Source: Tidjanibacter sp.
GTDB taxonomy: Bacteria > Bacteroidota > Bacteroidia > Bacteroidales > Rikenellaceae
Length of the DNA: 64,000 nucleotides
NCBI GenBank assembly: GCA_017936605.1
Contig: JAGBFH010000022.1
Coordinates: forward strand, 916 to 64,915
Direction of reading: 5' to 3'
Shown one piece after another: positions 2,062-64,000 of this stretch. The notes beneath the pieces were generated by a model. The model was given only the letters and a program-made list of their open reading frames with translations, searched no databases and had not been told where the DNA came from. Position 1 is the first letter of the stretch, and each line of letters starts with the position of its first letter. A program made the translations under genes and the position numbers.

Positions 2062-2078
2062 AACGAGAGAGAAATAAT

Positions 2079-3344: not shown

Positions 3345-3350
3345 TCTTTC

Positions 3351-3395
3351 GGGCTATTCCAATCATATTTTGATGCGAATAGCCCTTTGTTTTTT
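3351..3395 (+). terminator. Probable intrinsic terminator after umuC
   Basis: GGGCTATT...AATAGCCC stem followed by T-rich tract. Confidence 0.6.
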
Positions 3396-3487
3396 CGTTA
3401 TTTAGTAGTTAGGGGCTGCCGTGTGGGTACAAAAGTTGCACTTTTATTCCAGATACTCCAAGTGCAACACCACAATCTCACAGACCT

Positions 3488-10207: not shown

Positions 10208-10231
10208 CACCACTCTCCGACTCAAGTAGCA

Positions 10232-12046
10232 ATGAAGACCCTCGAACTCCTCGCCCCCGCCAAGGACCTCGCCACCGCCCGTGCCGCCATCGACTCGGGT
10301 GCCGATGCGGTCTATATGGGCGGGCCGCGCCTGGGCGCACGAGCCGCCGCCACCAACTCTATGGAGGACATCCGCCAGGCGGCACGCTATGCCCACCTCT
10401 ACGGCGCAAGGCTCTATATGACAATGAACACCATCGTCTATGAGCACGAGTTGGAGGAGGCCCGCAAAATAGCCCAAGAGGCCATCGAGGCGGGTGTGGA
10501 TGCGCTCATCGTTCAGGATATGGCCTACTGCCGTATGGGGCTCGAGGGTGCCGAACTCCACGCCTCCACTCAGATGTACAACGCCTCGCCCGAGAGGGTC
10601 CGTTTCCTCGGTCAGGCGGGCTTTTCGCGAATAGTCCTCGAGAGGGGGCTTACGGCCGACCAGATGAGGGAGATATGCAGTGCCACCGACAAGGAGATTG
10701 AGGTCTTCATTCACGGGGCCATCTGCGTATGTGGCAGTGGCAGGTGTTATATGAGCCGTTCGCTCTCCCACCGCAGTGGCAATCGTGGCGAGTGCAGTCA
10801 GCCTTGCCGCCAGCGCTACGACCTGAGGGATGGCAGCGGCAAAATCATACGCAAAGGGCTACACCTCCTGTCGGTCAAAGACCTCGACCTTTCGGCCCAC
10901 ATTGGTGAACTCATAGATATGGGCGTGGTGTCGTTCAAGATTGAGGGCCGCCTGAAGGATGAGGCCTATGTGAGAAACATCACAGCCCACTACAGCCGTC
11001 TGCTCGACGAGGCCATAGCCGCTCGCAAGTGTTGCCGCAGGGCCTCCCGAGGGCGTGTGAGCCTCGACTTTAGCCCCTCGCCAGCCAAGACCTTCACCCG
11101 CAGTGGTGGCGACTACATCTTCCGCGGAAAGCGTGCGGGCCTCGCCTCGTTTGACACCCCCAAGGCTATGGGCGAACGACTCGGCAGGGTGACAAAGATA
11201 GTGGGGCGCAGTTTTCTGCTCGACAAAAAGAGTGACCTCGCCTCGGGCGACGGCATCTGCTTCATAGCCGCGGGCGAACTCGTGGGCACAAACATCAACT
11301 CAGCCGAGGCCGGCGGCCGCATAACCCCCAACAGGATGGAGGGCATTGCGGTGGGCACCGACATCTATCGCAACTACCACAAGGCCTTCTATGACACCCT
11401 CGGTGCAACTCGCACACGCCGTTCGATGCCCGTTTGGGCCACGCTCTCGACCGACAAAAAAGGCTGCACGCTCTCGCTACGCAATGAGGAGGGGACCATT
11501 GTGGAGGCCACCACAGACACCCACTTTGAGCCCGCAACCAAAGGCGAGATGGCCATAGGCTCCATAACCTCTTCGCTCCGCAAGAGCGGCTCATCGCCCT
11601 TCGATGTGGTGGATGTGGAGTTCCAGTTCGATGGGCCCGTGCCCTTCATCCCCACAGGAGCACTCAACGCCCTGCGCCGAGAGGCCCTCGAGAGGCTCGA
11701 GGAGCTGTTGCGCAACAGTCAGCCGCCGAAGAATATCGCCCCCGAGGACCCCACAGTTCCCTATTCCCTACGCACCATAGGTGGCGACCACAATGTTGCC
11801 AACTCGCTCGCCCGCCGATTCTACACCGACCACGGCGTGGAACGCATAGACGAGGGCTACGACCTGCTGCCCGACCTGGAGGGTGTGGAGGTTATGCGCA
11901 CCCCCTACTGCATACGCCGCGAGATTGGCCAGTGTCTGAAGCAGGGCTCACGACTCAAGGAGCCCCTCACACTCATCCACGGCACCGAGGAGTACCGCCT
12001 GCGCTTCGACTGCAAGGAGTGCTCAATGCACATTGAGAAAATGTAA
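10232..12046 (+). CDS. U32 family protein with DUF3656 domain (RlhA-like)
   Basis: ELLAPA, GADAVYMGG, HASTQ, HGAICVCGSGRCYMS, NRGECSQPCR, SFKIEGR. Confidence 0.88.
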   Translation: MKTLELLAPAKDLATARAAIDSGADAVYMGGPRLGARAAATNSMEDIRQAARYAHLYGARLYMTMNTIVYEHELEEARKIAQEAIEAGVDALIVQDMAYCRMGLEGAELHASTQMYNASPERVRFLGQAGFSRIVLERGLTADQMREICSATDKEIEVFIHGAICVCGSGRCYMSRSLSHRSGNRGECSQPCRQRYDLRDGSGKIIRKGLHLLSVKDLDLSAHIGELIDMGVVSFKIEGRLKDEAYVRNITAHYSRLLDEAIAARKCCRRASRGRVSLDFSPSPAKTFTRSGGDYIFRGKRAGLASFDTPKAMGERLGRVTKIVGRSFLLDKKSDLASGDGICFIAAGELVGTNINSAEAGGRITPNRMEGIAVGTDIYRNYHKAFYDTLGATRTRRSMPVWATLSTDKKGCTLSLRNEEGTIVEATTDTHFEPATKGEMAIGSITSSLRKSGSSPFDVVDVEFQFDGPVPFIPTGALNALRREALERLEELLRNSQPPKNIAPEDPTVPYSLRTIGGDHNVANSLARRFYTDHGVERIDEGYDLLPDLEGVEVMRTPYCIRREIGQCLKQGSRLKEPLTLIHGTEEYRLRFDCKECSMHIEKM

Positions 12047-12101: not shown

Positions 12102-13001
12102 ATGAATAGTCCTGAATTACTTTCGCCCGTGTGGCAAGATTATGAGCTCATAGACTCGGGTGACTTCGAGAAACTCGAGCGATTTGGTCGTTGGGTGACT
12201 CGCCGCCCCGAGCCACAGGCCATCTGGCACAAGTCCCTCAGCGAGGAGGAGTGGCAGCGCACCGCCACGGCCACCTTTCGTCGTGAGGCCGGCAGCGAGG
12301 AGCGCGGCCGTTGGTCGCTCTCGCCCAAGCAGCCCGAGCAGTGGCGCATATCCCAGAGGGTGGGCGACAGGCAAATTGTCTTCCGTCTGGGTCTGACCAG
12401 TTTCAAGCACTTAGGCATCTTCCCCGAGCAGGCCGAGAACTGGAATTTTATATATGAGAGTGTCAGGGAGCTTATCGTAAGGGGAGGGAAGGACTCCGAC
12501 CGCCCCAAGGTCCTCAATATGTTCGCCTATACGGGTGGTGCGTCGCTTGCAGCGGCAGCGGCCGGTGCCGAGGTGACCCATGTGGATAGCGTCAAGCAGT
12601 GCATATCGTGGGCGCGAGAAAATATGGAGGAGAGCCACCTTGAGGGCATACGCTGGGTTGTGGAGGATGCTCTGAAGTTCGCACGCCGCGAGGTGCGCCG
12701 AGGCCACCGCTACGACGGCATAATCCTCGACCCGCCCGCCTATGGTCGTGGTCCCGAGGGCGAAAAGTGGGTGCTCGAGCAGAACATCGCCGAGATGCTC
12801 GCCCTGTGTGCCGAGCTACTCGGTCCCAACGGTTTCCTTGTGCTGAACCTCTACTCTATGGGGCTCTCGGCCCTGCTGGCCAAGAGTGCCGTCAATCAAC
12901 TCATACCCTCGCCCCGCACCGAGCAGTTCGGCGAGCTCTACTTCACCGACCGTCAGGGCAAAAACCTGCCGTTGGGCGTCTACTATCGTTGCAAGAAATA
13001 A
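12102..13001 (+). CDS. Class I SAM-dependent methyltransferase (RlmI/RlmK-like)
   Basis: YELIDSGDFEKLERFG, KVLNMFAYTGGAS, YDGIILDPPAYGRG. Confidence 0.85.
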   Translation: MNSPELLSPVWQDYELIDSGDFEKLERFGRWVTRRPEPQAIWHKSLSEEEWQRTATATFRREAGSEERGRWSLSPKQPEQWRISQRVGDRQIVFRLGLTSFKHLGIFPEQAENWNFIYESVRELIVRGGKDSDRPKVLNMFAYTGGASLAAAAAGAEVTHVDSVKQCISWARENMEESHLEGIRWVVEDALKFARREVRRGHRYDGIILDPPAYGRGPEGEKWVLEQNIAEMLALCAELLGPNGFLVLNLYSMGLSALLAKSAVNQLIPSPRTEQFGELYFTDRQGKNLPLGVYYRCKK

Positions 13002-13630
13002 TGAGGCCGGAGATAGTCAGCTATATCGAGGAGTGCATCTTGCCTCGCTATGCGGAGTACGATGCGGCCCATCGTCGTGACCACATTGAGGGTGTCATTG
13101 AGCGCAGCCTCGCACTTGCCGAGCACTACCCCGAGCTACACAAAGAGATGGTCTATGTTGTGGCCGCCTACCACGACCTCGGACTTCCCGAGGGGCGTGA
13201 CACTCACCACATCTCCTCTGCACGACTTATGGCCGAGGATGAGAGGCTCAGGGAGTGGTTCTCCACCGAGCAGGTGCAGACTATGCGTGAGGCCATAGAG
13301 GACCACCGCGCCTCTGCCACACGCCCGCCCCGCTCGCTCTATGGGATGATTGTCGCCGAGGCCGACCGCCAGATAGTACCCGAGGTGGTTATGCGCCGCA
13401 CGGTGCAGTATGGCCTTGCCCACTACCCCCACCTCACTCGCGAGGAGCACTGGGAGCGCTTTGTGGGCCACCTCCACGAGAAGTATGACTACGGCGGCTA
13501 CCTCACGCTCTACATTCCCAACTCCGAGAACGCCCGCCAACTCGAGATTCTCCGCACCATCATAGCCGACAAAACAAGACTCCGCGATCTCTTTGAGGAG
13601 ATTTTTGAAGGGTTGAGAAGAGAGCATTGA
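13001..13630 (+). CDS. HD-domain phosphohydrolase
   Basis: True start at the ATG overlapping the upstream TAA; AAHRRDH, AAYHDLG, EDHRAS, IVAEADR. Confidence 0.85.
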   Translation: MRPEIVSYIEECILPRYAEYDAAHRRDHIEGVIERSLALAEHYPELHKEMVYVVAAYHDLGLPEGRDTHHISSARLMAEDERLREWFSTEQVQTMREAIEDHRASATRPPRSLYGMIVAEADRQIVPEVVMRRTVQYGLAHYPHLTREEHWERFVGHLHEKYDYGGYLTLYIPNSENARQLEILRTIIADKTRLRDLFEEIFEGLRREH

Positions 13631-13810
13631 AAGGGCCAAAAGGGCAAAAAGGGCAAAAAGGGCAAAAAGGATTTTAAGGTCATTAAGGACCTTAAAGACC
13701 TTAAGGACCTTATACTTCAAGTATCAATTCCCTTTTGGCCCTTTCGGCCCTTTCGGCCCTTCCCCTCCCCTAAGTTAGGGGAGGGTCCGCGAAGCGGGGG
13801 AGAGGTCTGT
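13629..13810. repeat. 9-mer mosaic plus REP-like palindrome
   Basis: (AAAAGGGCA)n, (TAAGGACCT)n, (GGCCCTTTC)n, then CCCTCCCCTAA-G-TTAGGGGAGGG at 13763-13785. Confidence 0.85.
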
Positions 13811-31553: not shown

Positions 31554-33224
31554 CTAAAAACTCATCTTCACGCCGCCGCGCACACCGATACCCAAGGCGC
31601 GGTAGGTGGCCCACTCATAGATGGGTTGGCAGAGCAGGTTGTCGGCCCTCATCCAGAGGTCTATGCGCTCCGAGTAGTTCCAATCGAGCCTCAGCCCCAA
31701 GTCCACATAGGCGGGCATCCTCACAACCGTAGATGTGCCCGCAATGCCCCTCTGGGTAACCTCCAGAGCGCTTGCAAACTGCGTGCTCACCGTAAGCACG
31801 GTGCTCTTATAGCCCTCGGGGCGGAGTTGCAACTCCAGACCACCTCGCCACGAGCGGGGCTTGTAGTAGTCCGTCGTGCTATCGGCGTGGCCGAGGCCCA
31901 TATACTTTAGGTCGCCCTTGAAGCTCAACCCCTCGGCAGGTCGCCACTGGCCTTCGGCCTCCAGATACCACACTCGCTGACCATTGCTGCGGCCATAGGT
32001 GAGGATGGGCGAGCCCTCCCTGAGGGCCTCATAGAAGTAGCTCGAGAACCAGCGGGTGGCACCCGCAAGCCTATAGCTCACCTTACCGACCTCGCCCCTG
32101 AAGCCCACCTCCGCAAGCATAATCTTGCGCGAATCGACGGGCAGCATCTCCATAAAGGGGTTGTTCCACAGCCCGTTGCGGGTCACCTGGGTCTGCACAT
32201 CGTTGGCCACCTTCAGGTAGGGCACCAACTCCGAGTAGCGGTCATAGGCCGTCGAGATGCTCGCAATCACACCGTTGAGTGTGTTATTTGCACCCTTGTA
32301 GACCATATAGTCGTAGCCCGCCAGAATATCCACAGGCACCCACCTGCCAATCCTCAGCGACCACTCGGGCACAAAGGTTACCGAGGTGTCGTAGTAGGGC
32401 TCCGCGCAGCGCGACTGCACGCCCGAGTAGTGAAGCGTCACACGCCCGGGCAGCCAAGGGCTCACTTTACTGAGGCCCAAGAAGCCGAAGTTCACATTGA
32501 AGCGCCAAACATCCTCGCCCAGCGCATTGGAGGCGTAGAGGCCCATAAGGTTGGCGTCGTAGCCAAAGGGCGAATACTCCCCAAAGCGACCCCTCAAGGA
32601 GGCTTTGGCCTCCAGGTCGTTGGCCGCCATCAAGCCCCTCTCCTCGGTGACATCCACACCACCATAGTAGCTACCCAGCGAGCCGCGATACTTCACATAG
32701 CTCTCCAGCTGCATAAGTGGGTTAATATCGTAGAGGAACCTCACGCCCGCCTGATTGCGAGCCAGCCTCACCCTGCGACGCTCGCCATCCAGAGCGCGAG
32801 CCTTGCCCAGCTCGCCCTCGTGGTTGGCCCACAGAGTCAGCTGCATATCGTCATTGTGTATGGGGCTCCAGTAGGTATCCATTTCGCTCTGCAAGGGCAG
32901 ACCGCCACCCACCTTCAGGTAGAAACTCGAGGGGCGCGACCAGCGGGCCGCACTCATCTCCACGGGTGTGAGCGACTGCACCGTAAACTCGGTCCTATGG
33001 GCAACGGGGAAGATGCGGTAGTCGAGCGTGGGGCGCTGGATGGTCGTATCGAGCTGCTCCACTTCGCGCTCTATGCGCTCGCGGTTATCGGCACCCACAT
33101 AGACACTCTTCTGGATGACTATCGTCTTGGCAATCTTCTCGTCCTCCGTCTCCTGTGCTGTGGCCACCGTCGTAAGGCCACACAGCAAAGCAAGGGTTGC
33201 AATTATATGTCGGTTTCTCTTCAT
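31554..33224 (-). CDS. Outer-membrane beta-barrel/TonB-receptor-like protein co-located with the TPR protein
   Basis: Signal peptide, beta-strand pattern, terminal GVKMSF; Bacteroidetes TPR plus OMP gene pair. Confidence 0.7.
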   Translation of the reverse strand: MKRNRHIIATLALLCGLTTVATAQETEDEKIAKTIVIQKSVYVGADNRERIEREVEQLDTTIQRPTLDYRIFPVAHRTEFTVQSLTPVEMSAARWSRPSSFYLKVGGGLPLQSEMDTYWSPIHNDDMQLTLWANHEGELGKARALDGERRRVRLARNQAGVRFLYDINPLMQLESYVKYRGSLGSYYGGVDVTEERGLMAANDLEAKASLRGRFGEYSPFGYDANLMGLYASNALGEDVWRFNVNFGFLGLSKVSPWLPGRVTLHYSGVQSRCAEPYYDTSVTFVPEWSLRIGRWVPVDILAGYDYMVYKGANNTLNGVIASISTAYDRYSELVPYLKVANDVQTQVTRNGLWNNPFMEMLPVDSRKIMLAEVGFRGEVGKVSYRLAGATRWFSSYFYEALREGSPILTYGRSNGQRVWYLEAEGQWRPAEGLSFKGDLKYMGLGHADSTTDYYKPRSWRGGLELQLRPEGYKSTVLTVSTQFASALEVTQRGIAGTSTVVRMPAYVDLGLRLDWNYSERIDLWMRADNLLCQPIYEWATYRALGIGVRGGVKMSF

Positions 33225-33241
33225 AGTTCCTATCTGTCTGA

Positions 33242-36200
33242 CTAATTGGTAGTTTCGGGATTATTGAGGCTCTCAACGCGGGCCTTGGCTTCGGCAATGA
33301 TGCCATCCTTTTGGTTGGCGTAGCCGTCGACCACACTCTGGTAGGTGGCGCGTGCCTGGAACAGGTTGCCCTTGATGACAAACATATCGCCCAGCAGCAA
33401 GAACGACTTGGCAAGCCAATACTGGTGGGGGGTGCTCTTGGAGGCAAACTCATAGACGAGCTCCTCGGCCCTCGAGTAGTTGCCGCTCTCGTAGGCTATC
33501 TCCACAACCCTATAGGCACTCTCGGCGCCCTCGATGTTGGCCACATTGCGCCTGAGGAGGTTGTATATCTCTACGGCCTCATTCCTATTTCCACGCTGCT
33601 CCTCCACCTTGGCCCTCTCGAACCTTGCGCGGCGCACCAGTGCGGCAGGGGCATCGCCCTGGGCCTCAACATATTGTGCGGCATCCACAATGAGGCCGCC
33701 ATCGCCACTATTCATCGCACTCGCAAAGTAGTCTGCCATCACCTCGCGCCTCTCGGAGGGGCTATTGCTCTCCTCCAACAGCCAGTGGTAGGCGGTGGTC
33801 ATCGTGGCCCAATCTCCATTGTCGGCCGCCACGCGCGCCATCTTCTCATAGCCACGACGGGTGTACTTGTTGTGGCCCATCTGGGAGAGCATCTTCAGCT
33901 GCTCCTGTGCGCCACCCTTGTCGCCAAGTTCGGCACGGCAGTCGGCCGAGTAGTAGAGAGCCGCATCGGAGTAGATGCCCGAGGGGTAGTCCTTCAGGTA
34001 CTTATCAAACGAGGCTGCGGCGGTCTTCTTGTCGCCCAAGATGTAGACCCTCTGTGCGGCCACAAAGCTGAGTGAGTCGCGCTGAACGGCTCCCAGGTCG
34101 CTATTCATACCCACCTGGTCGGCATAGGCGAAGAAGCCCTCAATATTGTTGCGCTCGAGGTAGATGGTGCGAATCTCGCCAAGGGCGTTGTGGGCAGCCA
34201 TAGAGCCGTGGCCCTCGGCCACAATGTTCTTATAGATAGCCAGTGCCGAGTCCGTATCGCCCGTATTGCGGTAGGCCAGTGCAAGGTTGCCCTGAGCGAT
34301 GGCTCTCTCACGCGAACGGGGGTATCTCTTGAGGTAGCTGCCAATGACCTCCTGTGCCGCCCCAAACTGGCCGTCGCTGATGAGCGTTGCACCCCACTCA
34401 TAGTGTGCATCCTCCACATAGGGACCCTCATCGAGGGTGACAATCTCCTCGAGGGCCGCAAGGCGTGAGGGCACATCCTTGCTGAGGCCATACATCTGGG
34501 CTATGCGATAGGCGGCATAGTAGCGGCTATGGAACTCCTCGCCGGTAATCTTCTTGTAGTCCTCAATGGCCCTCTTATACTTGCCCGCCGCGGCCATAGC
34601 GTCACCCATACAGCTATAGGAATCCTCGTAGAACTCATCCTTGGCGGAGCGCAGGTCGAGGAACGAGAGGAAGTCCTTGTGGGCACCGTTATAGTCGCCA
34701 CGCGCATACTTAGCATAGGCCATATTATAGTAGGCATAGGGGTAATCCTCGTGGTGAGTCATCTTCATCGAGAGGTACTCCTTATACATCGCTGCGGCCA
34801 TCTTATACTCCCCCGAGCGGTAGTCCAGGTGGCCCAGCAGGAAGAGTGTGCGGGCGGCAATATCACGATTCTTGTGAGAGAGGTCCAGAGCGATTTCGGC
34901 ATACTCCTTGGCCTCCTCGTAGCGCTCCAGTTCGTAACACTCGACGGCGTAGTAGTAGGCCACACTCTGCATAGCCTTGCCTATATTACCCTTGGTTGTG
35001 CCAAAAGCCTCGAGGGTTTCGTAGGCCAGTTTCAGGTCGTTGGCGGCATAGCACACCGACACGAGGTAACCCTCAATCTCTTGGCGGTTCTCCGAGGCGG
35101 GATAGCGCTCAATGAAGCTGCGCAGGGTGAGAATCTCCTCGTCGAAGTTGGCACCCCCAAGCTCCACAAGCAGCTTGCAGTAGTTATACAGAGCGTCCTC
35201 GCTCAAGGGGTCGTTGCCCTCGGGCAGGTAGGACATCGAAAAGCTCTTCATTGCCCCCAGTTTGTCGCCCTCCCTAAGCAGGCAGTCGGCCAGGTGGTAG
35301 GCGGCATTGCGGGTCATCGAGTCCTCGGCACCACAGGCGGCCTGAAGGTAGCCCGCAGCCTTGCTCGTCTGGCCCAAGCGGTAGAGCGAGTAGCCCGCTA
35401 TGTAGTTCTCCTCGCGCGAGATGGCGTCGCCTATCTCGCTCTCCAGAGCGGCAATATGCTTGTAGGCCTCCTCCCAGTTCTCCACACGGAACTGACACTC
35501 GGCACCCATCCTGTGGAGCTCCTGATGGCGGCTGCCCCCCACACCGGTGAGCACCTGGTCCACATTGGCCACCACATAGTCGTAGTTCTTCATACGATAC
35601 TCCACGTGGAGCAGATAGTAGGCGATGACACCCGAGTAGAGCTCATCGTCGGCAAACGACAAGAAGATATGGCGTGCCGTGGGGTAGTCCTCCTCCTGGT
35701 AGGCGAAATAGCCCAACATATAGCGTGCGTGGGAGCCGTAGGTTTCGGAGTGGACAACCTTCGAGAGCCACTTGCGGCTCTCGGCCACACGCGAGAGGTT
35801 GTAGTGGGCGTGGCCACACTCAAAGGCCATACGCTCCAACTGCGAGGCCGACAAGAGCTCCGTATCGACCCTCTCGAAGCACTCCACAGCATCCTCCCAC
35901 ATCTCCTTCTCGTAGTATTCGGTACCCAGAGCCATCAGCGCCTCGTTCCTGTAGGGCGAGGTTGGGCGGTGGGCCAGAAAGCCCTCCAGTGCCTCGGTGC
36001 CGTCGCCCAGGCGGGCATCGCAGATGGCCGAGAGGAACTCCACCTCACCCAGCGTGACCTCATCTACGCTGCTGAGCCTGACGGCTGCGGCTGCGGCCCT
36101 CTGGAGCTCCATCTTCGCCTCCCTATAGAGGCCCAAATTGTAGAGCTCCTCGGAGCGGCCGAGGTACTCCTCGACGGAGCGTTCCTGTGCGGATGCACCC

Positions 36201-52105: not shown

Positions 52106-52522
52106 CTACTCCGCCCTTCCAAAAAGGTTCTTTAGGCGACGGCCGAAGAGGAGCATAACATCCACAAAACGCCTTTCGCCCGTAACCACCGAGGCGTTCT
52201 CGAGATAGCTCCAGAACTCCACACCACAGACAAAGCCTGTGAAGAGGTTGGCAAGTCGCAGTTCGACAAAGGGTGAGGCGATGCCGTCGAGCAGCCAGGC
52301 CAGAACGATGCCCGCCATCACGAACGACAGTTTGCGGATAGTTTTCCAAGCCTTGCGGCTCTCGAAGCGCCAAGTGCGCCCCTCGGTGCGGGCCCTGCGA
52401 CGGTCTGCCAGAACTCCCGTGAGGAAGTCCACCGCCACGAACGCCATCGCACACACAAGCAAAGGCTCTACGGGTGCAAAGAGTGAGAGCACCCCCGTAA
52501 CGATTCCAGTCAAATACTTCAT
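52106..52522 (-). CDS. Phage holin (family 4-like)
   Basis: TM helices; VDFLTGV and EFWSYLEN motifs. Confidence 0.8.
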   Translation of the reverse strand: MKYLTGIVTGVLSLFAPVEPLLVCAMAFVAVDFLTGVLADRRRARTEGRTWRFESRKAWKTIRKLSFVMAGIVLAWLLDGIASPFVELRLANLFTGFVCGVEFWSYLENASVVTGERRFVDVMLLFGRRLKNLFGRAE

Positions 52523-52569: not shown

Positions 52570-53049
52570 TCAGAGGACAATGCCGCCCGAGAGTGAGGTG
52601 CGGGAGCGCACATTCTCCTCGGGGGAGTAGAGGGGGCCGAGGGTGGGCAGCAGGGCGAGTTGCTCGGTGGCGGCATCGATGAGTGCCTCGGCGTCGTGGC
52701 GCAGTCGTCGTAGGGCCGCACGCATCGCCGCACTATCGGCCACCTCGAAGCTCTCGCCCGAGAGCCTCACGACACCCGCCGTGCCTACCTGTACGGCCAG
52801 CGAGGGCAAAACTACCGAGGCTACATAGAGTGCCAAGGGTACTTTAAGAAACTCCTCGGTAAACTTTGTGCACTCCTCCGAGGGGTTTTCGGCAACAAGC
52901 AGGTCGAAGAGCTCTCGGCCCACCACAGGGCGCAGAAAGCGTCGTTGGGCGGCAAGGATGGTGTGGGCGGGCACCGCCTCCTCGCGGAGGGTGTTGGTTG
53001 TGCCGAAGGCAATGGAGATGACCTCGGCAGAGGTGATGAGTTGTTTCAT
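52570..53049 (-). CDS. Putative head-tail adaptor/connector protein
   Basis: 159 aa, helical; directly downstream of the portal; AQRRFLRPVVGRELFD and KVPLALYV resemble Bacteroidetes phage adaptors. Confidence 0.55.
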   Translation of the reverse strand: MKQLITSAEVISIAFGTTNTLREEAVPAHTILAAQRRFLRPVVGRELFDLLVAENPSEECTKFTEEFLKVPLALYVASVVLPSLAVQVGTAGVVRLSGESFEVADSAAMRAALRRLRHDAEALIDAATEQLALLPTLGPLYSPEENVRSRTSLSGGIVL

Positions 53050-53055: not shown

Positions 53056-54300
53056 TTAGTCTACATTTTTGAGTCCATACTTGGTTACCTGTGCCACATA
53101 GTACTGCTCCTCGGGGTTTGTGGGGTCGTAGTCGAGGCCGTCGGCCTTGCGGGCCTCCCAAACACGCATATAGAGGGGCTTGGAGCGCGAGGGCGGGCGG
53201 TTGACAATCTCCAGTCGTGAGCCATCCTCACCCAGGATGGTGCTCACCAACGAGCGTATGGGCTCCATAAGCTCCTCCTGCTCGCCGAGGATGACCGTAT
53301 TGAGGGCCACCTCCCACTCGTGCAGGATGCGCTCCGAGGAGAAACCGCCGGCATAGTCGAGGCCGCTGAGGCTGCGGAACCACGAGTGGGCAATGACGAT
53401 GTCACCCGTAGCCTGGTCGTGGAGCTCGCGCCAGTCGCCCTCGTTGGTGGAGGTGATGGGGATGAAGCGCGAATTGTCGCCGTCGTCGCACTCCTTGACC
53501 ATAAACATCACCTGACCGGGCTTGCCCGAGAACTTGCGCTGTGCTGCGGCGGCCAGCTTCTCGGCCTCCTCCTCACTCTCCACGCCACCATCGAGGAGCA
53601 TCACACCCGAGAGCTGAAAGGAGTTATCCAGACGCGAGATGTTCCAGTTGTCGGTCTTGTAGGCGATGGTCGACACATTCATACCTGCAATGTAGGGCGG
53701 CACGCCATAGTGGGAGAACATAGGCTCGTAGTCCTTGTAGTGAATCATCGTGTGGAGGTTGCCATCGGCCCCCTGCTCGAAGAGCGGATAGAGTGGCACG
53801 CTAACCGCCTCGGAGCGCTGATAGCGGGTCCAGTCGTGGTGGAGCACCACGCGGCCTGAATCCTTGGCCAGTCGGCAACGCGAGGCATCCTGATGGAAGA
53901 GTGCCAGAAAGGAGTGGGCCGAGTCGGTCACTACCTCCACGAAAGCGTTGCCAAAGAGGCACTTATCGAAGGCCAGCTTATTGAGCACCTGACGCAACGA
54001 CTCGCCCTGAGAGTTGGCCTCCTCCACGAAGGCCTTGGTGCGGATGGCCTCATCGGGCAGGCTGAAGCCCGCACCCGAAATGTAGTCGGCCTTGTCGTTG
54101 ATGATGCGGCGGTGGGTTGTCGAGCAGCGCGACAGAAGCGAGAGGGCCAGGGGAAAGAGGTTGTCGCTACCCCAGTTCCAGACCTCGCCCTGCTTTGCGC
54201 CGGAGCCACCCACCTGAATGGGCAACCCGAGGCCCCCTATGGAGCTCTCGGCTCGAGGGGAGAAGATTTTGGGGGTATAGTTGATTTTTGATTTTTCCAT
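53056..54300 (-). CDS. Phage portal protein
   Basis: WGSDNLFP, STTHRRIINDKADYISG, FGNAFVEV, YGVPPY, NSFQLSGV, IVIAHSW. Confidence 0.8.
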   Translation of the reverse strand: MEKSKINYTPKIFSPRAESSIGGLGLPIQVGGSGAKQGEVWNWGSDNLFPLALSLLSRCSTTHRRIINDKADYISGAGFSLPDEAIRTKAFVEEANSQGESLRQVLNKLAFDKCLFGNAFVEVVTDSAHSFLALFHQDASRCRLAKDSGRVVLHHDWTRYQRSEAVSVPLYPLFEQGADGNLHTMIHYKDYEPMFSHYGVPPYIAGMNVSTIAYKTDNWNISRLDNSFQLSGVMLLDGGVESEEEAEKLAAAAQRKFSGKPGQVMFMVKECDDGDNSRFIPITSTNEGDWRELHDQATGDIVIAHSWFRSLSGLDYAGGFSSERILHEWEVALNTVILGEQEELMEPIRSLVSTILGEDGSRLEIVNRPPSRSKPLYMRVWEARKADGLDYDPTNPEEQYYVAQVTKYGLKNVD

Positions 54301-54374: not shown

Positions 54375-54863
54375 CTACAGTTCGAGGGGACTAAAGGGGG
54401 TCGCACTCCAACCATCCTTCGAGCCGAGGAGCATCCTCACCGTAGGGTTGTCGCTACGCTTTGTGGCGCTGTCGCCCTCGGCCTCCAGCAGCCTCAGGGG
54501 ATAATCGGCACCACCGCGGGGCGAGCACCCAACAACAAAACTCCTACCCGAGGTGAGAGTGAGTACGGCGACCACACCCTGACGGCTGAGGGCTCTTACC
54601 TGTCCGAGCAACTCGGTCCTTAGACCACTCACGACCATCTCGAGGTGGTGCTCCACCCCACCCTCGGAGTCTATGCGCTCGAGATAGCGGGCTCCGCCAT
54701 CGGCAAAATAGACCTCCAGAGGGGTCGCCTCGGGCGCCAGACTACAGTTCGTAAAGCCCGCCGAGGAGCGGTAGCCCCCGAAGCTCACATCGTCCACCTT
54801 GTAGAGGACCACCGAGCGCAAGCCCCCGAAATTACGAGAGCACGATGCAGAGGAGCCTTCCAT
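54375..54863 (-). CDS. Putative major tail (tube) protein
   Basis: 162 aa right after the capsid gene; N-terminal CSRNFGGLRSVVLY pattern typical of Bacteroidetes siphovirus tube-like proteins. Confidence 0.5.
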   Translation of the reverse strand: MEGSSASCSRNFGGLRSVVLYKVDDVSFGGYRSSAGFTNCSLAPEATPLEVYFADGGARYLERIDSEGGVEHHLEMVVSGLRTELLGQVRALSRQGVVAVLTLTSGRSFVVGCSPRGGADYPLRLLEAEGDSATKRSDNPTVRMLLGSKDGWSATPFSPLEL

Positions 54864-54865: not shown

Positions 54866-56089
54866 CTACTCAATCGGGAACAACATCTCGCCAGCCTTGA
54901 CAAGAGTCAGTCTATACATCGTTGCGCCCTCCACCGAGAACTCAATCTCATTGTGACCCTCATAGAGGCACAGGGACTCACCTTCAATGATGGGCTCGTA
55001 GTTGTCGTCATAGGCAAAGGCCCAAATCTCTTCTGCCCAGGGCTCAGGGGTGTTGCAGTTGCACTCAATCTTCAGCACATCGCCATCAAGAGAGCTCTCC
55101 AGATGGCCAAGGGGAGCACCCACAGCAAAGGAGAGAAGCTCGGGCAGGAGGTAGTCGCAACCGGCCATAAAGATTGCCCTCTGGCGGTTCTCCATAAGGT
55201 CGGGGTTGTACCACATACGCACCTCGGTGCCGGGCATATCGTTGGTGTTGACAGCCAGGGCGAGGTTGCGGCGGTCGGTGAGCAGTGCGAAGGAGCCGGG
55301 CAGGTCGAGGGCCTGCTCCTTGTAGCCGTTGAGCTGCACATCTACCACGGGGATGCCGCGATAGAAGAGCCCGTCACGGCCCTGCTGCTTGGCCAGATAG
55401 GCGGCCTCAATGGCCACACCATCGAGCTCCTCCTCGTAGGCATTGTAGACATCGGTGGTCACAAAGAATGCCAACTGGCCCTCCGAGCGCAAGGAGCGCA
55501 ACTCCTCGGTGGCGTTATCCCAGAGCCTCTTCAGAACGGCCTCGGCCCAACCGCTCTTGCCTTCATTCACATAGGCAAAGCGGCGAATCTCCTCCTCGTT
55601 GCAGTCGTAGACAATCTGCTTGACGAAGCCGTCGAAGGTGTCCAATACGCCATTGTCACGATCTCGGTTGCCATACCACATTGTGGCCCTCACGCTCTCG
55701 GCAATGGAGGCTCTGAAGAGCGAGGTCTCGGCCTCCTCGAGCTCGGTGCCCGAGAGGTCGTCGAGGTTCACATCCGCACGACCTGTGATGAGCTCATAGA
55801 CGGTCGAGAAGTAGTTGTCGGCCGCATAGGCCATCTCGGCCTTGACCTTGTGGAGCTTCATCTCCTTCTGGAACTTGTCGGCAGGCGCACCGCCGCTCCA
55901 GCCACTGGAGGTGAAGCGATTGAGGATGTTGCCGTCGCGCTTCCAGAAGTGGAGCGTGGTGGGCACGGGCATATTGTACATCACTTTGATGCCGAGCTGC
56001 TCGGCGTTGCTACCGGTGAGCATAGGGCGGAAAAAGATGTTGTCGAGCCTCTGTCCCGAGTAGGTCTTGATACTTTCGATTTTACTCAT
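54866..56089 (-). CDS. Major capsid protein with ~80-aa C-terminal extension
   Basis: Follows the ClpP-type protease; capsid-like segments MWYGNR..TFDGFVKQI, FFVTTDVYNAYEE, YRGIPVV, NLALAVNT, RAIFMAG. Confidence 0.7.
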   Translation of the reverse strand: MSKIESIKTYSGQRLDNIFFRPMLTGSNAEQLGIKVMYNMPVPTTLHFWKRDGNILNRFTSSGWSGGAPADKFQKEMKLHKVKAEMAYAADNYFSTVYELITGRADVNLDDLSGTELEEAETSLFRASIAESVRATMWYGNRDRDNGVLDTFDGFVKQIVYDCNEEEIRRFAYVNEGKSGWAEAVLKRLWDNATEELRSLRSEGQLAFFVTTDVYNAYEEELDGVAIEAAYLAKQQGRDGLFYRGIPVVDVQLNGYKEQALDLPGSFALLTDRRNLALAVNTNDMPGTEVRMWYNPDLMENRQRAIFMAGCDYLLPELLSFAVGAPLGHLESSLDGDVLKIECNCNTPEPWAEEIWAFAYDDNYEPIIEGESLCLYEGHNEIEFSVEGATMYRLTLVKAGEMLFPIE

Positions 56090-56124
56090 TGTTGTCTTGT
56101 TGTTTTTTTAGTGATTAATTGGTT

Positions 56125-56400
56125 GTTTTTGGGGGATTGCAAGGGGGGTAAGGGGTTGCAAAGGGTTGTAGGGGAATTTAGGGAGTTTAGGGAGTTTAGG
56201 GAGTTTAAGGTCCTTAAGGTCTTTAAGGTCTTTAAGGTCCTTAAGGTCCTTAGGGTCCTTAAGGAAAACTCCCATTTCTCTCATTTCTCTCATTTCTCCC
56301 ATCTCTCCCATCTCTCCCATTTCTCCCATTTCTCCCATTTCTCCCATTTCTCCCATTTTCTGCCGAGGCAAAACCCTCTACAATCAACCCTCAACTCCTC
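56125..56400. repeat. Host 9-mer mosaic inside the phage-like operon
   Basis: (TTAGGGAGT)n, (TAAGGTCCT)n, (TTCTCCCAT)n between the protease and capsid genes. Confidence 0.9.
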
Positions 56401-57352
56401 TTCTTATGGCCTCTCGGAGGCTCTCCATATCGGCTGCATAGGCTCCGCTGTTGCCCGAGAGTTTGGGCACACCGTTGGGTGCGGGGTCGTCGCACTCCTT
56501 CACGCGGGTGGGCTCGGCCGTATGGAGTCTCGAGGGTGGCATTGGGGGGCTCTGCTGCTCACTCTTCTCGGCCTGCGAAGGGGCCACTGAGGGACCACCG
56601 TTGGCGGAGGTGGCATTGACGGGTAGGGGGTTGTTCTTTGCAAGGCCCACACGCTTTAGGACCCTACCCCACGCCTCCGAAAGACGCTCAGCGAGGGGCT
56701 TGGGAGGTAGGGGTGTGAGCCCCAGGAGGGCAATCTGGCCACGAGCGTCGTCGGTGATGGGCGAGGAGGCTATGATGCTGTCCACCAATCCCGCCTCCAG
56801 ACACTCCTCGGGCGAGAGCCACACACCCTTGCCACCATTGCGGTTCATCAGCTGGCGATACTCCTCGGGGGTGCGACCCGCAGCAAGGGCATATATCTCC
56901 GCCAGACGCTCGTCGCTCTTGTCGAGAAGCTCTTTGGTGGCGGCCAGTGAGTGGCTGTTGCCCTCCACGGCGCTCTCGCAGCAGTGTATGAGGTAGAGTG
57001 CGTTGGCCGAGATTTCGCGGCACCCCTTGGAGGCGGCCTGAGCGATGATGGTTGCGGCCGAGGCCACATAGCCGTAGCAGCGGGTGATGACCTCCACGCC
57101 CAGCTCGCGTGCCGCATCGTAGATGAGTAGTGCATCGGCCAGACAGCCGCCCGTCGAGCGGATATTGAGCACCAGTCGGTCCACACCGCCACTCTGGCGA
57201 ATCTCCTCCAGCGCACTCTCGAAGCGCTCGTAGGTGGCCACGCGGCCATCTTCGGTGCCGAACTGTTCCACCTCGGGGGTGCCGAGTATGCCGTCGATGT
57301 CGATGGTGGCGACCCTCAGCGAGGTGGCGATTTTGTTGTTTGATTCTTCCAT
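56384..57352 (-). CDS. ClpP-type prohead protease with C-terminal scaffold-like tail
   Basis: IDIDGILG, LNIRSTGG, GYVASAATII (catalytic Ser), YLIH (His), WLSPEECLEAGLVDSI; Pro-rich tail. Confidence 0.88.
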   Translation of the reverse strand: MEESNNKIATSLRVATIDIDGILGTPEVEQFGTEDGRVATYERFESALEEIRQSGGVDRLVLNIRSTGGCLADALLIYDAARELGVEVITRCYGYVASAATIIAQAASKGCREISANALYLIHCCESAVEGNSHSLAATKELLDKSDERLAEIYALAAGRTPEEYRQLMNRNGGKGVWLSPEECLEAGLVDSIIASSPITDDARGQIALLGLTPLPPKPLAERLSEAWGRVLKRVGLAKNNPLPVNATSANGGPSVAPSQAEKSEQQSPPMPPSRLHTAEPTRVKECDDPAPNGVPKLSGNSGAYAADMESLREAIRRGVEG

Positions 57353-57378: not shown

Positions 57379-57639
57379 TTATCGGTAGATGTAGCCTACG
57401 ACCGTTCCGTAGGAGCAGTTTACGGCCTCGGCGACCAGGTGCATAGCCTCTATCTTGGGCACCCCCTGCCGCTGGAGCTGAGCCACTCGCTCACGCACAA
57501 CAAAGGCCTTGGCGGCCGAGGGGGCTATAAGGCCGTTGGAGATGAGGAACTCTATGGTCCCACACGAGGTCATCCCCCTGCAACGGGAGAGCAACAGGGC
57601 CTCCACATCACGATCCAACTTGGTTTGCGCGGCTGCCAT
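57379..57639 (-). CDS. Small protein with a possible C-terminal HTH
   Basis: 86 aa; VPKIEAMHLVAEAVNCSYGTVVGYIYR; ATG overlaps the upstream TGA. Confidence 0.65.
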   Translation of the reverse strand: MAAAQTKLDRDVEALLLSRCRGMTSCGTIEFLISNGLIAPSAAKAFVVRERVAQLQRQGVPKIEAMHLVAEAVNCSYGTVVGYIYR

Positions 57640-57806
57640 CACTCCACAATGTTTGCTTGTTCCACAACGGCCCTGACGGCCTGCTGAGCTGCTGTTATCT
57701 CGCTCTCCAGGACATAGACCTTCACTTGTCTAAGGGCCGAGGCGATGGCCGAGGCGAGCTCCTCGATGGTGAGGCTCACGGTTTTGGTTTCGGGATTGTA
57801 ATTCAT
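57639..57806 (-). CDS. 55-aa protein resembling a tape-measure C-terminus (not in the ORF track)
   Basis: Manual translation MNYNPETKTVSLTIEELASAIASALRQVKVYVLESEITAAQQAVRAVVEQANIVE; host codon bias; TGA overlaps the next ATG. Confidence 0.7.
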   Translation of the reverse strand: MNYNPETKTVSLTIEELASAIASALRQVKVYVLESEITAAQQAVRAVVEQANIVE

Positions 57807-57839: not shown

Positions 57840-60221
57840 CTAAATTGTCGTCAGCACAACCTTGGTCGAGGGGCTCGCGGGGTTGTAGTCCACAATCTCC
57901 TCCAGTCGGCAGAGCACGGGCTCACCGTCAATCTTCACCAGGTAGTGGGCCCTAAAGTCGTGCTTTGTGCTGTTGGGGACCACAATCTGCTCCACCTCAT
58001 CTGGGCGCAGAGATACATAAAGAGAGAGGCGACGCGAGTGGTTGAGCGTATCTACACGCTGCCTCCAGTAGCGCTCGAGCCCCTCGACCCCCTCGCGGTC
58101 ACAGAAGAGCAGCGAGGAGGGCTCGCCCGCAAGGGACCCATCGTCGAAGAAGGTCAGAAGCGGATACTCTCGCCCCATACCCGAGGGGTACTCTAAGCTC
58201 TCGCCCACAGGGAGGGTCTTGAGTCCGCGGTAGTGGACAATCTTGGGCAGGAAGTTGTGGTAGTGGAGCGCCTCGGTCGCGGAGCTCTGCTTGTCGCCCA
58301 CCATCAGCAGTGAGGCCGAGGGCGAGGCCGAGAGGGTGCCCGAGGTGGTGAGGGAGGCTGTAAAGAGGCTGTTTTCGACCCTGCGGGTGCCCTCGGTGGC
58401 GAAGATGTTCTCTATGGCTGCACTCCACGCGCCATACTCCTCACCCGCCTCACTCTGCTCCTCGAGCTCTTCGACCGCCCTATCACCCTGACGATAGGTT
58501 AGCTGGAGCCTCTGGTGGTGGTCGCCACCAAGTTCCTCAACCACAATACCCTTTGTCACATCCACCCTCTCGGACCAATCTACCACCACCCGCGGGTCGC
58601 ACCACTCGCTGCGGGGCTCAATGCAGACCTTTCTGTCGAGCGGGTCGGTGTAGATTTGTAGGTCGAAGAGCTCCTTGAGGGCGGTGAGCAGGTCGAGCCC
58701 CGTGAAGGGGTAGTTCATAACATCGCGCCAGGAGAGTTCCGCACCCTCGGCAGGATGGGGTATGAAGATGGGGCGCAGGCTACTACCCCTGAGGAGCCTC
58801 ACCTCCAGCGGCTCTGCGGGGCCCATAAAGCAGAACATATCGAAGTACTTGGGCTCCTCGGGCGAGCACTCGCGGGCCTTGGAACGCAGGGTCACATCAA
58901 TCATCGTGTCGCCATACTCGTGGACATTGCCATCATAGATGGCCCAGTCCGACATAGGGAAGTAGGCGATGCCATCTCGGACCATCTCCAGACGCGCTCC
59001 GATGACGGGCCCAGAGAAGGAGTGAGAGAAGGTACCCTCACGGAAGGTTGTGGAGAGCAGTCGGTGCTCCTCGTAGTCGTCGGGGGTGAGGTTTGCGGGG
59101 TTGGCATTGGGATTGGTGATAACCTTGGCGTAGAGGTTATACTCGGCCCCCTCCACCATATCGAACACTATCAGCGTGTAGGTGTGATTGGCCTCCAGAG
59201 GGTACTTGCGATGGTCGGTGAAGGTGTTGCGGATGGGCACCACCACCCTATCTCCAAAGGAGGGCTGTATGGTCGAGAGGCCCTCGAGCAGCTCACGGCT
59301 CTTTATGCGGTAGCCGGTTTGGAGGCGCAGTCGGTGCTCAAAGGCCACCCACACCGGAGTGGTGGGGGTGAAGCAGATGCGCCCTGTGGAGTCCACCCCG
59401 AAGCAGCCACGATTGTAGCTCCCGTGCTCACCGTCGGGCACATCGACCAGATTGCCCACAGTCGCAAAATTGGCCAAGTGGTCGGCGTAGACCCTGCCGA
59501 ACTCATCGGCAAGAGCCACCGCCGAGTCCTCCTTCTTGAAGGCCAGGAAGTCCATCTTCTCACCCCACCCCTCATAGCTCCGCTCGCTCCATCGGCCGCT
59601 CATATAGAGCCCTCTGAAGAAGTCCGAGTCCATAAATTCCGACTCAACGGCATAGCCTGCCTTGGCGAAGATGGCCCTCACAAGCAGACCGATATTAACG
59701 AACGGGTGGTAGCTATCGGGCAGGAGGCGGTTGTGGTGGCCCTCGTCGCACACCCTACCCTCGTGCTCCACGGGAAAGAACTTCAGCATCGACTCCCCTC
59801 CTTGCAGTCCCTCACGGATAGCATCCTCGGTGTAGCTGAAACTCTCCTCGGGCAGCAGAGCCTGAATACTCTCGGCGGCGACCTTCACCCACTCGCGAGC
59901 ATTGCCGATGATATTGAAGCGATAGAAGCCCTCGGGGCCCAGTTGCGAGGCTGTGAGATAGATTGTGCCCTCCAGAATCACACACCCATCCTCCTCCACG
60001 CGTCCGGTGTGGAGCGTGTGGTTGAACATCCCAGCCGTCAGCGGTTGTTCGCAATCCCCCATAAGGCTGCGGTTGAGCGGTGTAGAGGGAATGGTGATAC
60101 TCTTGGAGTAGCCCGCACGGCCCCACGAAGTAGAGGTGAGCGAGGCCATAGAGAGCGAGATGGATATCTCCGAGGAGGTGTCCATATCGGCCTCCACATT
60201 GTCTATAAAGAGTTTTATCAT
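57840..60221 (-). CDS. Phage tail protein (baseplate/hub-like)
   Basis: MIKLFID..ADMD...RAGYSKSITIPSTPLN N-terminus and PLDRKVCIEPRSEW...VVDWSERVD, as in Bacteroidetes siphovirus tail proteins. Confidence 0.7.
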   Translation of the reverse strand: MIKLFIDNVEADMDTSSEISISLSMASLTSTSWGRAGYSKSITIPSTPLNRSLMGDCEQPLTAGMFNHTLHTGRVEEDGCVILEGTIYLTASQLGPEGFYRFNIIGNAREWVKVAAESIQALLPEESFSYTEDAIREGLQGGESMLKFFPVEHEGRVCDEGHHNRLLPDSYHPFVNIGLLVRAIFAKAGYAVESEFMDSDFFRGLYMSGRWSERSYEGWGEKMDFLAFKKEDSAVALADEFGRVYADHLANFATVGNLVDVPDGEHGSYNRGCFGVDSTGRICFTPTTPVWVAFEHRLRLQTGYRIKSRELLEGLSTIQPSFGDRVVVPIRNTFTDHRKYPLEANHTYTLIVFDMVEGAEYNLYAKVITNPNANPANLTPDDYEEHRLLSTTFREGTFSHSFSGPVIGARLEMVRDGIAYFPMSDWAIYDGNVHEYGDTMIDVTLRSKARECSPEEPKYFDMFCFMGPAEPLEVRLLRGSSLRPIFIPHPAEGAELSWRDVMNYPFTGLDLLTALKELFDLQIYTDPLDRKVCIEPRSEWCDPRVVVDWSERVDVTKGIVVEELGGDHHQRLQLTYRQGDRAVEELEEQSEAGEEYGAWSAAIENIFATEGTRRVENSLFTASLTTSGTLSASPSASLLMVGDKQSSATEALHYHNFLPKIVHYRGLKTLPVGESLEYPSGMGREYPLLTFFDDGSLAGEPSSLLFCDREGVEGLERYWRQRVDTLNHSRRLSLYVSLRPDEVEQIVVPNSTKHDFRAHYLVKIDGEPVLCRLEEIVDYNPASPSTKVVLTTI

Positions 60222-60250: not shown

Positions 60251-61243
60251 CTACCATAGTTGACTCTTTCTCGAGGGGCGCAGGGTCACATCTATCGACA
60301 TAGCCCCCTCGCCACTACATCTACACACCGACTCCTCAATGGTGCAGGGCCTCCACTCATCGCCCTCGAGCCTCCAGAGGCGGGGTGCCGAAGTAAGCCC
60401 CCTCACAAAGTCCATCTCGCCACGCGAGAGCAGACCGCTACGGAGCCTCAGGCGACTCCAACTCTCCACCGCGAGTGTGTGGGTGCCACTCAGGGTGTCG
60501 CTCTCGCGCCTCTCCACCTGCTGGTGCTCCTCGGGCTGCGAGCGGAAGGTGTAGTGGCGCACAGCACCATAGGCATCGAGCCACGCCACACGACAATCCC
60601 CCTTTGCCGACGGCACCACAAGGTAGTCAATGACACCCTTGAGCAGGCCGCCAATCCACACCCTCAGATCCAACTCCACACTCTCCTCCTGCTGGTCGAG
60701 TGCCGAGCGCAAATCCTCAAACGAGTAGGTCAGCGTATAGAGGCCCGAGGAGGGGCACACATAGCGCAGCAGACGCTCGGAGGTGTCGCTCTGGGGGGTT
60801 GTAACATCCACAATGACACCATCATCCTCCTTCAGATAGAGCGACAATTCGTCAAACTCGTCGGGAGAAATGACCCTTCGCTGTCGGGCAGGACCCACCA
60901 TTGCCGAGGGCTCCAAGGCCACCACATTGGCCCCAAACCTCGCCAGAGCACTTCGCTCTCCATCCTCACCCACGGCAACACTCAGTGCCACCTGGCGACC
61001 CGCGGGCTGCTCCAACCTCAGAGAGCCTCGCACCACTGGCTGGGGGTCCAACATACGACGAATGATTGCTCGGGGCGAGGAGTCAATCACCGAACGCCCC
61101 GCATAGCGACGAGCACCCAACCTCTGGCCCTCGCTGTCGAAGAAGTATATCTCGGTACTCTCCGCAGGGTCCACCTCCTCGAAATGGAAATAGTTGTCGG
61201 CCAAAATGGGGCTAAAGTCGGCCGGAATAGATATCAATTTCAT
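60251..61243 (-). CDS. Phage tail protein (distal-tail-like)
   Basis: C-terminal VAWLDAYGAVRHYTF...LRSGLLSRGEMDFVRGLTSAPRLW pattern. Confidence 0.6.
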   Translation of the reverse strand: MKLISIPADFSPILADNYFHFEEVDPAESTEIYFFDSEGQRLGARRYAGRSVIDSSPRAIIRRMLDPQPVVRGSLRLEQPAGRQVALSVAVGEDGERSALARFGANVVALEPSAMVGPARQRRVISPDEFDELSLYLKEDDGVIVDVTTPQSDTSERLLRYVCPSSGLYTLTYSFEDLRSALDQQEESVELDLRVWIGGLLKGVIDYLVVPSAKGDCRVAWLDAYGAVRHYTFRSQPEEHQQVERRESDTLSGTHTLAVESWSRLRLRSGLLSRGEMDFVRGLTSAPRLWRLEGDEWRPCTIEESVCRCSGEGAMSIDVTLRPSRKSQLW

Positions 61244-61261: not shown

Positions 61262-61672
61262 TTAGTTCATACACTCCACACACTCCATCCTCAAACTGAG
61301 GCTCACGGCACACTCGCCCGCAATGGTGAGCATACGCTCCTCGGGCTTGAGCTCCAGAAGCTCCACCGCGGCCACAGATGAGGCCTCACCCAAGAGCGCC
61401 ACAAAACTCCCTGCCGAGTCCATCAGCGAGGCCATAGCCTCACGCCTCGACTTAGCACCTATTACATTGTCGCTCATTAGTTTAATTGTGACATCATACT
61501 GCACCCTGCGCTCCTTTTCGCCCTCCATAGAGCCGGCTTCCGCCCAGGCAAAAGAGGCCATCGGAAAGCCTTTGGATAGTAGCGTTTGATGAAGGTCCGA
61601 CTCGAGGGTCGGATTGTACCCGAGGCTCTCGGCAATGGACCATAGGGCCGTAAATAAGGATTTGTAACTCAT
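61262..61672 (-). CDS. Putative tail completion/terminator protein
   Basis: 136 aa, first gene of the operon; size and alpha/beta pattern fit, no firm motif. Confidence 0.45.
   Translation of the reverse strand: MSYKSLFTALWSIAESLGYNPTLESDLHQTLLSKGFPMASFAWAEAGSMEGEKERRVQYDVTIKLMSDNVIGAKSRREAMASLMDSAGSFVALLGEASSVAAVELLELKPEERMLTIAGECAVSLSLRMECVECMN

Positions 61673-62232: not shown

Positions 62233-64000
<1,768 letters not shown>

Follow-up and report, generated by a model that had tools for sequence, protein, structure and literature searches.

Introduction

The tape-measure protein (TMP) is the textbook molecular ruler of phage tails, and laboratory deletions have established that its ends are essential and that its middle sets tail length. 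Here, we describe a 55-amino-acid (aa) open reading frame (ORF) on the minus strand of a 64,000-nucleotide (nt) stretch of the genome of Tidjanibacter sp. (Bacteroidota, Rikenellaceae; assembly GCA_017936605.1, contig JAGBFH010000022.1). This whole stretch is referred to below as the window, and the product of the ORF as mini-TMP. The explanation that accounts best for the results as a whole, and which we regard as likely, is that mini-TMP is a TMP tip whose ruler has been deleted and which retains its role in docking to the baseplate hub, within a phage-derived cluster predicted to form a stub-tailed particle.

In siphoviruses, the TMP C-terminus occupies the lumen of the Dit-Tal/hub tip complex as a trimer. 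In phage lambda, the gpI plug holds residues 818-842 of gpH, a three-helix coiled coil, inside the tail-tip lumen (PMC10721106). In phage TP901-1, the C-terminal 60 residues of the TMP are required, and deletion of the last 30 leaves heads only; the C-terminal extremity, described as a short coil and a beta region, is assigned to the Dit-Tal initiator complex, and, by extrapolation, no tail would be left once the TMP is as short as about 127 aa (PMC5099701). Both gpH 818-842 and the last 30-60 residues of the TP901-1 TMP are short C-terminal pieces that lie in the lumen of the Dit-Tal complex or hub and are needed to start tails, and the window peptide is likened to them by analogy. Its secondary structure, read by eye, is a helix followed by a KVYVLES strand and a second helix, which would put the strand in the place of the TP901-1 beta region. 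No sequence similarity to the lambda or TP901-1 segments was detected, and there the segment is part of the ruler, whereas in the window it is a free-standing gene product.

The closest relatives in sequence are the TMPs of Bacteroidota siphoviruses, represented by UViG_3300030102_000161 (L087), UViG_3300013947_000112 (G151) and, distantly, Bacteroides phage EMB1. These TMPs resemble the window peptide in their C-terminal domain, which carries the motif ...(K/R)VYV(L/V)ES(D/E)I(T/S)..Q..V......F/Y and ends 14-17 aa past it, and they are encoded in the same slot relative to the hub gene and the protease-capsid-tube-portal block. They differ from it in length (530-1250 aa), whereas the peptide has no ruler, hydrophobic segments or core TMP domain and therefore would not be able to measure a tail.

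As a locus, the window also resembles the gene transfer agent (GTA) RcGTA in holding a chromosomally inherited head-tail cluster amid core genes, here groEL and rimP-nusA-infB; the comparison covers its gene content and conserved chromosomal position. RcGTA retains a functional TMP and a measurable tail, whereas the siphovirus-type module of the window cluster appears to have lost its ruler by deletion.

A protein-coding gene under purifying selection

The ORF encodes MNYNPETKTVSLTIEELASAIASALRQVKVYVLESEITAAQQAVRAVVEQANIVE (55 aa), begins 33 nt after the stop codon of the preceding 793-aa gene and ends in a TGATG at 57641-57637, in which its TGA (57641-57639) overlaps the ATG (57639-57637) of the following 86-aa ORF. 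The ORF, its TGATG overlap with the next gene and its place after a large tail gene had been pointed out in an original prediction made from the letters of the window, and all were confirmed on the sequence. It had also been claimed that the operon has no long helical tape-measure gene, and indeed no long helical protein of any kind is encoded there. In comparisons with 10 Tidjanibacter orthologues, dN/dS was 0.08-0.21 with saturated dS, and in other assemblies gene callers have annotated close relatives of the peptide as 55-57-aa proteins. The 55-aa ORF is a genuine protein-coding gene under purifying selection.

With the single peptide sequence as query, 49 of the 151 Rikenellaceae species genomes searched yielded a homologue, and a profile search (E<=0.01) identified mini-TMP, with start and stop codons intact, in 44 of these 151 genomes from nine genera. 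Nine columns (Y31, V32, L33, E34, S35, I37, Q41, V44 and V48) are invariant over 22 sequences from several genera. Conservation across orthologous clusters, on which the original prediction depended in part, was thus borne out by both occurrence and selection. These data also bear on whether the peptide might be no more than the non-functional remains of a TMP gene in decay, its frame held open by inertia. Repeated loss of the peptide in related lineages and a frameshift at the hub/mini-TMP junction of one genome (G085) would fit such decay, but the low dN/dS despite saturated synonymous sites, the invariant columns and the intact start and stop codons in 44 genomes all speak against it, and we consider a mere relic hardly credible.

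Homology to the C-termini of phage tape-measure proteins

Profile A2, built from 22 chromosomal Rikenellaceae sequences and no phage proteins, was searched against 1.84 billion representative proteins. It gave 176 matches at E<=1e-3, and in all 150 of the matches listed the aligned part is the very C-terminal end of the target. Most of the targets were 41-371 aa long and represent the chromosomal family, while at least 17 were 614-1018 aa long (E 2e-9 to 2e-4). The long targets (17 representatives) all end in (K/R)VYV(L/V)ESDIT..Q..V......F/Y, and in a PHROG scan the best annotated family was 'tail length tape measure protein' for seven of ten. In five of these TMPs (P0132, P0140, P0147, P0158 and P0161), the match reaches back to profile positions 3-6, and therefore nearly the whole 55-aa protein would correspond to the TMP C-terminal domain.

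Single-sequence locus queries (P0132 and the hub) gave nothing, and alignment queries were used instead. With an alignment of the long TMP ends, 80 IMG/VR loci were recovered, and 79 new loci were analyzed. In all 79, the motif is found 14-17 residues ahead of the stop codon. Of the 55 motif-bearing ORFs that are not truncated, 52 are 531-1246 aa long, and two of the remaining three, which are short, come from Alistipes chromosomal clusters mis-binned as viral. The VYV(L/V)ESDIT..Q ending of TMPs, named in the original prediction, is therefore a real feature of both the long proteins and the viral loci. The 883-aa TMP of L087, which matches phrog_1533 at 3.6e-57 and more than 15 further TMP families, ends in RVYVLESDITNTQNNVSLIQSQAGF directly before the stop codon, and alignment of A2 with this TMP by hhalign covered the last 28 residues (probability 91.6%, E 8e-7). 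On these alignments, almost the entire 55-aa protein shares homology with the final 30-50 residues of the TMPs of a widespread lineage of Bacteroidota siphoviruses.

The ruler that defines a TMP is long, mostly alpha-helical and extends over hundreds of residues, with tail length in proportion to its own, and the peptide has 55 residues. It has no hydrophobic segments, and no core TMP domain or family (PF10145 or a TMP PHROG) was found in it by Pfam and PHROG scans, in which neither the peptide nor its long forms gave any match; a PDB sequence search with the peptide profile returned chance matches only. Since the ruler features are missing, the proper description of mini-TMP is that of a C-terminal (hub-docking) TMP domain that stands free as its own gene product.

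In another Rikenellaceae genus, a phage or prophage (L072; G056:C35, 3938-6010) carries a full 690-aa TMP ending in IKVYVLESDITNAQRNVKTTVEQATF, flanked by a 204-aa gene, which follows the terminase gene, and by a gene for an XkdF-type protease. TMP-bearing relatives therefore seem still to infect members of the Rikenellaceae.

Synteny with TMP-bearing phages

The viral loci have a constant gene order, namely 330-like, hub, TMP, head protease, capsid, tube-family, portal and DUF6712. The hub is homologous to the 793-aa protein of the window in 36 of the 79 viral loci (E down to 1e-47), and a head protease follows in 76, being of the XkdF/S78 type in 67 and of the ClpP type, as in the window, in 9. 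The tube-family gene and the portal gene are each present in 65 of the 79 loci, the portal with E values to 1e-55. L087 and a second contig, L117, have an upstream part consisting of genes for the hub (719 aa), for proteins of 85 aa and 171-184 aa, and for the TMP (823-883 aa), and a downstream part with three small genes followed by ClpP protease, capsid, one or two tube paralogues, an 86-87-aa protein, portal and DUF6712. The L087 hub aligned with the Rikenellaceae hub profile over 635 columns (hhalign, 99.8%, E 1.6e-28). The same layout, in more distant form, was found in G151, a complete 27-kb phage with direct terminal repeats, and in the isolated phage EMB1. In L087, two tandem tube-fold paralogues follow the capsid gene (9068-9664 and 9694-10344); L117 and the window have one each.

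At each Rikenellaceae locus examined, the mini-TMP homologue is placed between the large hub protein and a protein of 86-90 aa. Compared with the phage module, the window is three items short, having neither the TMP ruler nor the pair of small genes located ahead of the TMP in L087 and L117. These two genes gave no family match in L087 and, by position, may encode tail assembly chaperones. Judged by gene order, the peptide occupies the place of the TMP in a chromosomally inherited phage-derived cluster.

The relationship could in principle run the other way, with an ancestral stand-alone plug of the hub lumen (compare lambda gpI and the plug domain of T5) later fused into phage TMPs, in a cluster that never had a long TMP. 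In keeping with this, the C-terminal domain is the only part common to short and long forms. The N-terminus of mini-TMP (MNY.., YRIxWDDxLW or LFHILLPEEWQ) was tried as a retained TMP N-terminus and found no support, as a hidden Markov model (HMM) of 15 TMP N-termini gave real sequences no higher scores than shuffled or reversed ones. A tree of the 48-aa domain, made to test for a single origin of the short forms, also leaves short and long forms imperfectly separated, with 10 state changes for 18 TMPs, although the domain is too short to resolve them. Fusion is nevertheless opposed by the near absence of a free-standing domain from viral contigs, where untruncated ORFs are almost always long and two of the three short ones are chromosomal, and by the cluster's own tube and hub genes, which belong to a long-tailed lineage and are kept in exactly its order; vertically inherited chromosomal clusters would moreover be the derived state. 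Fusion in this direction is very unlikely in our view, and we retain reduction of a phage TMP as the direction of change, a choice that rests on parsimony and synteny.

Proteins encoded beside mini-TMP

The AlphaFold (AF2) model of the 793-aa protein, made with a 44-sequence alignment, had a pLDDT of 89 and a pTM of 0.83. Its best PDB matches by Foldseek were central hub proteins of tail tips and baseplates, namely lambda gpJ (9e7m and 8k35), a monocin tip protein (9j1k_L, probability 1.0), hubs of the Mu gp44 type (3cdd and 1wru), the Milano and JBD30 baseplates, Listeria gp18, and VgrG and PVC spikes. The model thus identifies the neighbor of mini-TMP as a baseplate hub of the Tal/gpJ type. 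The profile search, the synteny and the predicted hub identity of this neighbor are three independent lines that support the proposal, made in the original prediction, of a TMP reduced to its C-terminal tip; its similarity to phage TMP C-termini was likewise upheld by the A2 search and hhalign.

The 162-aa protein was also modeled with AF2 (pLDDT 89), and the model matched PDB structures of the T5 tip, the SPP1 tube, PVC/AFP tubes, Hcp, 80alpha and lambda. Against BFVD, it matched uncharacterized siphovirus proteins with TM scores of 0.7-0.8 and 'major tail protein' entries more weakly, and the HMM of its family matches the proteins encoded between capsid and portal in TMP-bearing phages. By its model, the 162-aa protein has a tail-tube fold, so that the cluster holds a predicted hub and a predicted tube-fold protein without a ruler.

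The 330-aa protein had no Pfam, PHROG or PDB sequence match; its C-terminal third resembles a 339-aa protein of EMB1 at the same position (hhalign 76%, E 2.4e-5), and it is possibly a distal-tail or baseplate component. The 136-aa protein had no family match in Pfam and PHROG scans.

The 86-aa family, with the Alistipes motif ...C(S/T)YEY(I/V)RKCMYYY.., is specific to domesticated clusters. No counterpart was detected in TMP-bearing phages, and hhalign found no similarity to the 65-aa gene at the same place, before the protease, in L087. Our impression is of a helix-turn-helix-like protein, perhaps a small regulator that binds DNA and was acquired or kept when the cluster became domesticated. 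This neighbor raises the question of whether mini-TMP has been repurposed away from the tail tip, as a partner or regulator of the 86-aa protein or as a head or scaffold accessory. The TGATG overlap, the continued adjacency of the pair in relatives, the restriction of the 86-aa family to domesticated clusters and the tolerated loss of the peptide where the hub persists would suit such a role, whereas the invariant residues fall mostly within the core motif of bona fide TMPs and so point to an unchanged binding partner, the hub gene always adjoins the peptide, and one Tidjanibacter locus (L071) keeps the 86-aa homologue without the peptide. Repurposing is, on balance, unlikely, and a retained hub-docking role is preferred.

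On the minus strand, the cluster runs in the order groEL, 136 aa, 330 aa, 793 aa, 55 aa, 86 aa, ClpP-type protease, capsid-like protein, 162 aa, portal, DUF6712, holin and rimP-nusA-infB (Table 1).

Table 1. Positions of mini-TMP and of the surrounding genes in the window
Feature	Position	Strand	Remarks
55-aa ORF, putative mini-TMP	57639..57806	minus	Predicted equivalent of the C-terminal domain of Bacteroidota siphovirus TMPs; profile matches, selection, synteny
groEL	62233-63858	minus	Flanking core gene
136-aa protein	61262..61672	minus	First of cluster; syntenic in relatives; no family match
330-aa tail-module protein	60251..61243	minus	Upstream of hub in all Rikenellaceae loci
793-aa protein, predicted baseplate hub / Tal-type tail-tip protein	57840..60221	minus	AF2 and Foldseek; directly upstream of mini-TMP
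86-aa protein	57379..57639	minus	Kept after mini-TMP in Rikenellaceae; no Pfam match
ClpP-type head maturation protease	56384..57352	minus	PF00574, 1.9e-24; phrog_94, 2.5e-33
Probable major capsid protein	54866..56089	minus	phrog_1623 (virion structural protein), 1.3e-9; homologues after protease in phage contigs
162-aa protein, predicted tail-tube fold	54375..54863	minus	AF2 and Foldseek; family HMM
Portal protein	53056..54300	minus	PF04860; phrog_11226, 1.6e-20
DUF6712 protein, possible head-tail adaptor	52570..53049	minus	PF20459, 3.1e-6; after portal in phage contigs too
Holin	52106..52522	minus	PF05105, 5.7e-10; last cluster gene before rimP

Between the protease and capsid genes, the window contains a block of short tandem repeats (56108-56371) that reads GEM seven times, KDL five times and LPK three times in a minus frame, and EFR.., KVL.. 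and SHF... in a plus frame. A GEMGEM repeat also opens another contig of the same genome (C10:13-288), and the block resembles an intergenic element present in several copies, or may be a reason why contigs break.

Variants and losses of mini-TMP in the Rikenellaceae

In Tidjanibacter, mini-TMP is 55-60 aa long. In Alistipes and other genera, it is 80-330 aa long and consists of a short motif at the N-terminus (YRIxWDDxLW, LFHILLPEEWQ or YYRI), a variable linker rich in Pro, Ser and Thr, and the same conserved C-terminal 45-50 residues, mostly ending in ...ASF at the stop codon.

Several chromosomal clusters have lost tail genes to different degrees. Clusters L063-L065, L068 and L070 keep the hub and tube-fold genes, with mini-TMP absent, and clusters L061, L062 and L066 keep the hub, protease, capsid and portal genes, with both mini-TMP and the tube-fold gene absent within the stretch covered. 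Comparison of these clusters gives what looks like a graded series of tail-gene loss, which fits a tail undergoing reduction.

An apparent hub/mini-TMP fusion of 882 aa in genome G085 (L069, G085:C32:59500-64500, 1724-4372 minus) was rejected: it results from a frameshift about 33 aa before the normal end of the hub, which probably reflects either a mistake in the assembly or a mutation that created a pseudogene, and there is no clean fusion. In L070 (G116:C1, 3098-6487 minus), the 330-aa gene and the hub gene form one open frame of 1129 aa, and in about a dozen Rikenellaceae genomes the hub lies within open frames of 1027-1379 aa. These joined frames may represent a real fusion of two tail-tip proteins.

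A tape-measure gene elsewhere in the genome

All ORFs of the genome were searched with 19 TMPs, and two of them matched: the 55-aa ORF itself and, on contig C10 (24053-28291, minus), a protein of 1412 aa. The latter is a canonical TMP (phrog_25337, 1e-109; the sole PF10145 match in the genome), ends in QAYVVMVGKNGLVEQMKKYESMKQKANIYG directly before the stop codon and lacks the motif. It is encoded in a complete-looking prophage of about 39 kb (about 12.5-51.7 kb of C10), outside the window, which also has genes for an integrase (12508-13698), for a portal-like protein (32617-33990), for tail-tip proteins, placed after the TMP, and for a 1059-aa protein resembling a primase/helicase. Within the genus, TMPs of the C10 type are confined to 2 of 41 species genomes, whereas the hub occurs in all 16 genus genomes of the family sample. 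By this distribution, the C10 prophage is accessory and separate from the conserved cluster. The genome thus has one full TMP, but it is carried by a sporadic, integrase-bearing prophage and is without the motif, which leaves the original prediction standing at the level of sequence.

Weighing the proposed ruler-deleted tape-measure tip

Other observations weigh against a ruler-deleted tip in a stub-tailed particle. The 50-250 residues added in the Alistipes forms, as N-terminal motif and Pro/Ser/Thr-rich linker, are unexplained by it. The peptide appears dispensable in evolution, as the hub is present in 94 of the 151 Rikenellaceae genomes and mini-TMP in 44 only, and it is missing even in some Tidjanibacter, such as at L071, where the hub is directly followed by the 86-aa homologue. 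Searching 50,697 deposited phages (INPHARED) by tblastn with the peptide and an Alistipes version gave no match even at E<=10. The motif-bearing TMP P0139 likewise had no match among the INPHARED phages; the sources of the motif are metagenomic phages and prophages, and the C-terminus of the EMB1 TMP (USR81477.1) carries a degenerate and much weaker motif. Finally, the tube-fold gene has been kept, so that a TMP-independent tube of some length is possible.

A history consistent with the data would begin with a deletion that took out both small genes together with about 95% of the TMP, and with it the helical ruler, after which the remaining C-terminal domain acquired a new start codon. Mini-TMP would then dock as a trimer in the lumen of the 793-aa hub and nucleate, stabilize or plug the tip complex, keeping only the initiator-complex role of a TMP. 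Since 55 aa is below the zero-tail intercept of about 127 aa in TP901-1, the tube-fold protein would add at most about one ring without a ruler, and the predicted particle would have a stub tail, with the tip complex joined almost directly to the neck. The short or vestigial tail and the retained nucleating function of the original prediction are plausible and agree with the genetics of TP901-1 (PMC5099701); its nearly tailless particle goes beyond the evidence, because a tube-fold protein is still encoded.

Implications

For annotation, these results indicate that ORFs of fewer than 60 aa in phage-derived clusters can carry meaning, and caution is warranted in their treatment. In addition, the C-terminal signature (K/R)VYV(L/V)ESDIT..Q..V......F marks the TMPs of a large and poorly annotated group of Bacteroidota siphoviruses.

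Nature appears to have run the limiting TMP deletion in these bacteria, leaving the C-terminal domain alone, as its own gene, under selection and beside the hub that it should bind. The peptide offers a defined minimal module for how the end of a TMP nucleates the tail tip. The finding also yields a prediction of what any particles formed by Alistipes and Tidjanibacter, which are common gut bacteria, may look like. The full scenario, in which a siphovirus-like particle changed naturally into a stub-tailed one by deletion of the ruler and two genes, with the peptide as minimal initiator module, is put forward as possible but rather doubtful. If true, it would reveal a graded series of tail reduction in the inherited, possibly GTA-like particle system of abundant gut bacteria, in which related lineages have lost the peptide and then the tube gene.
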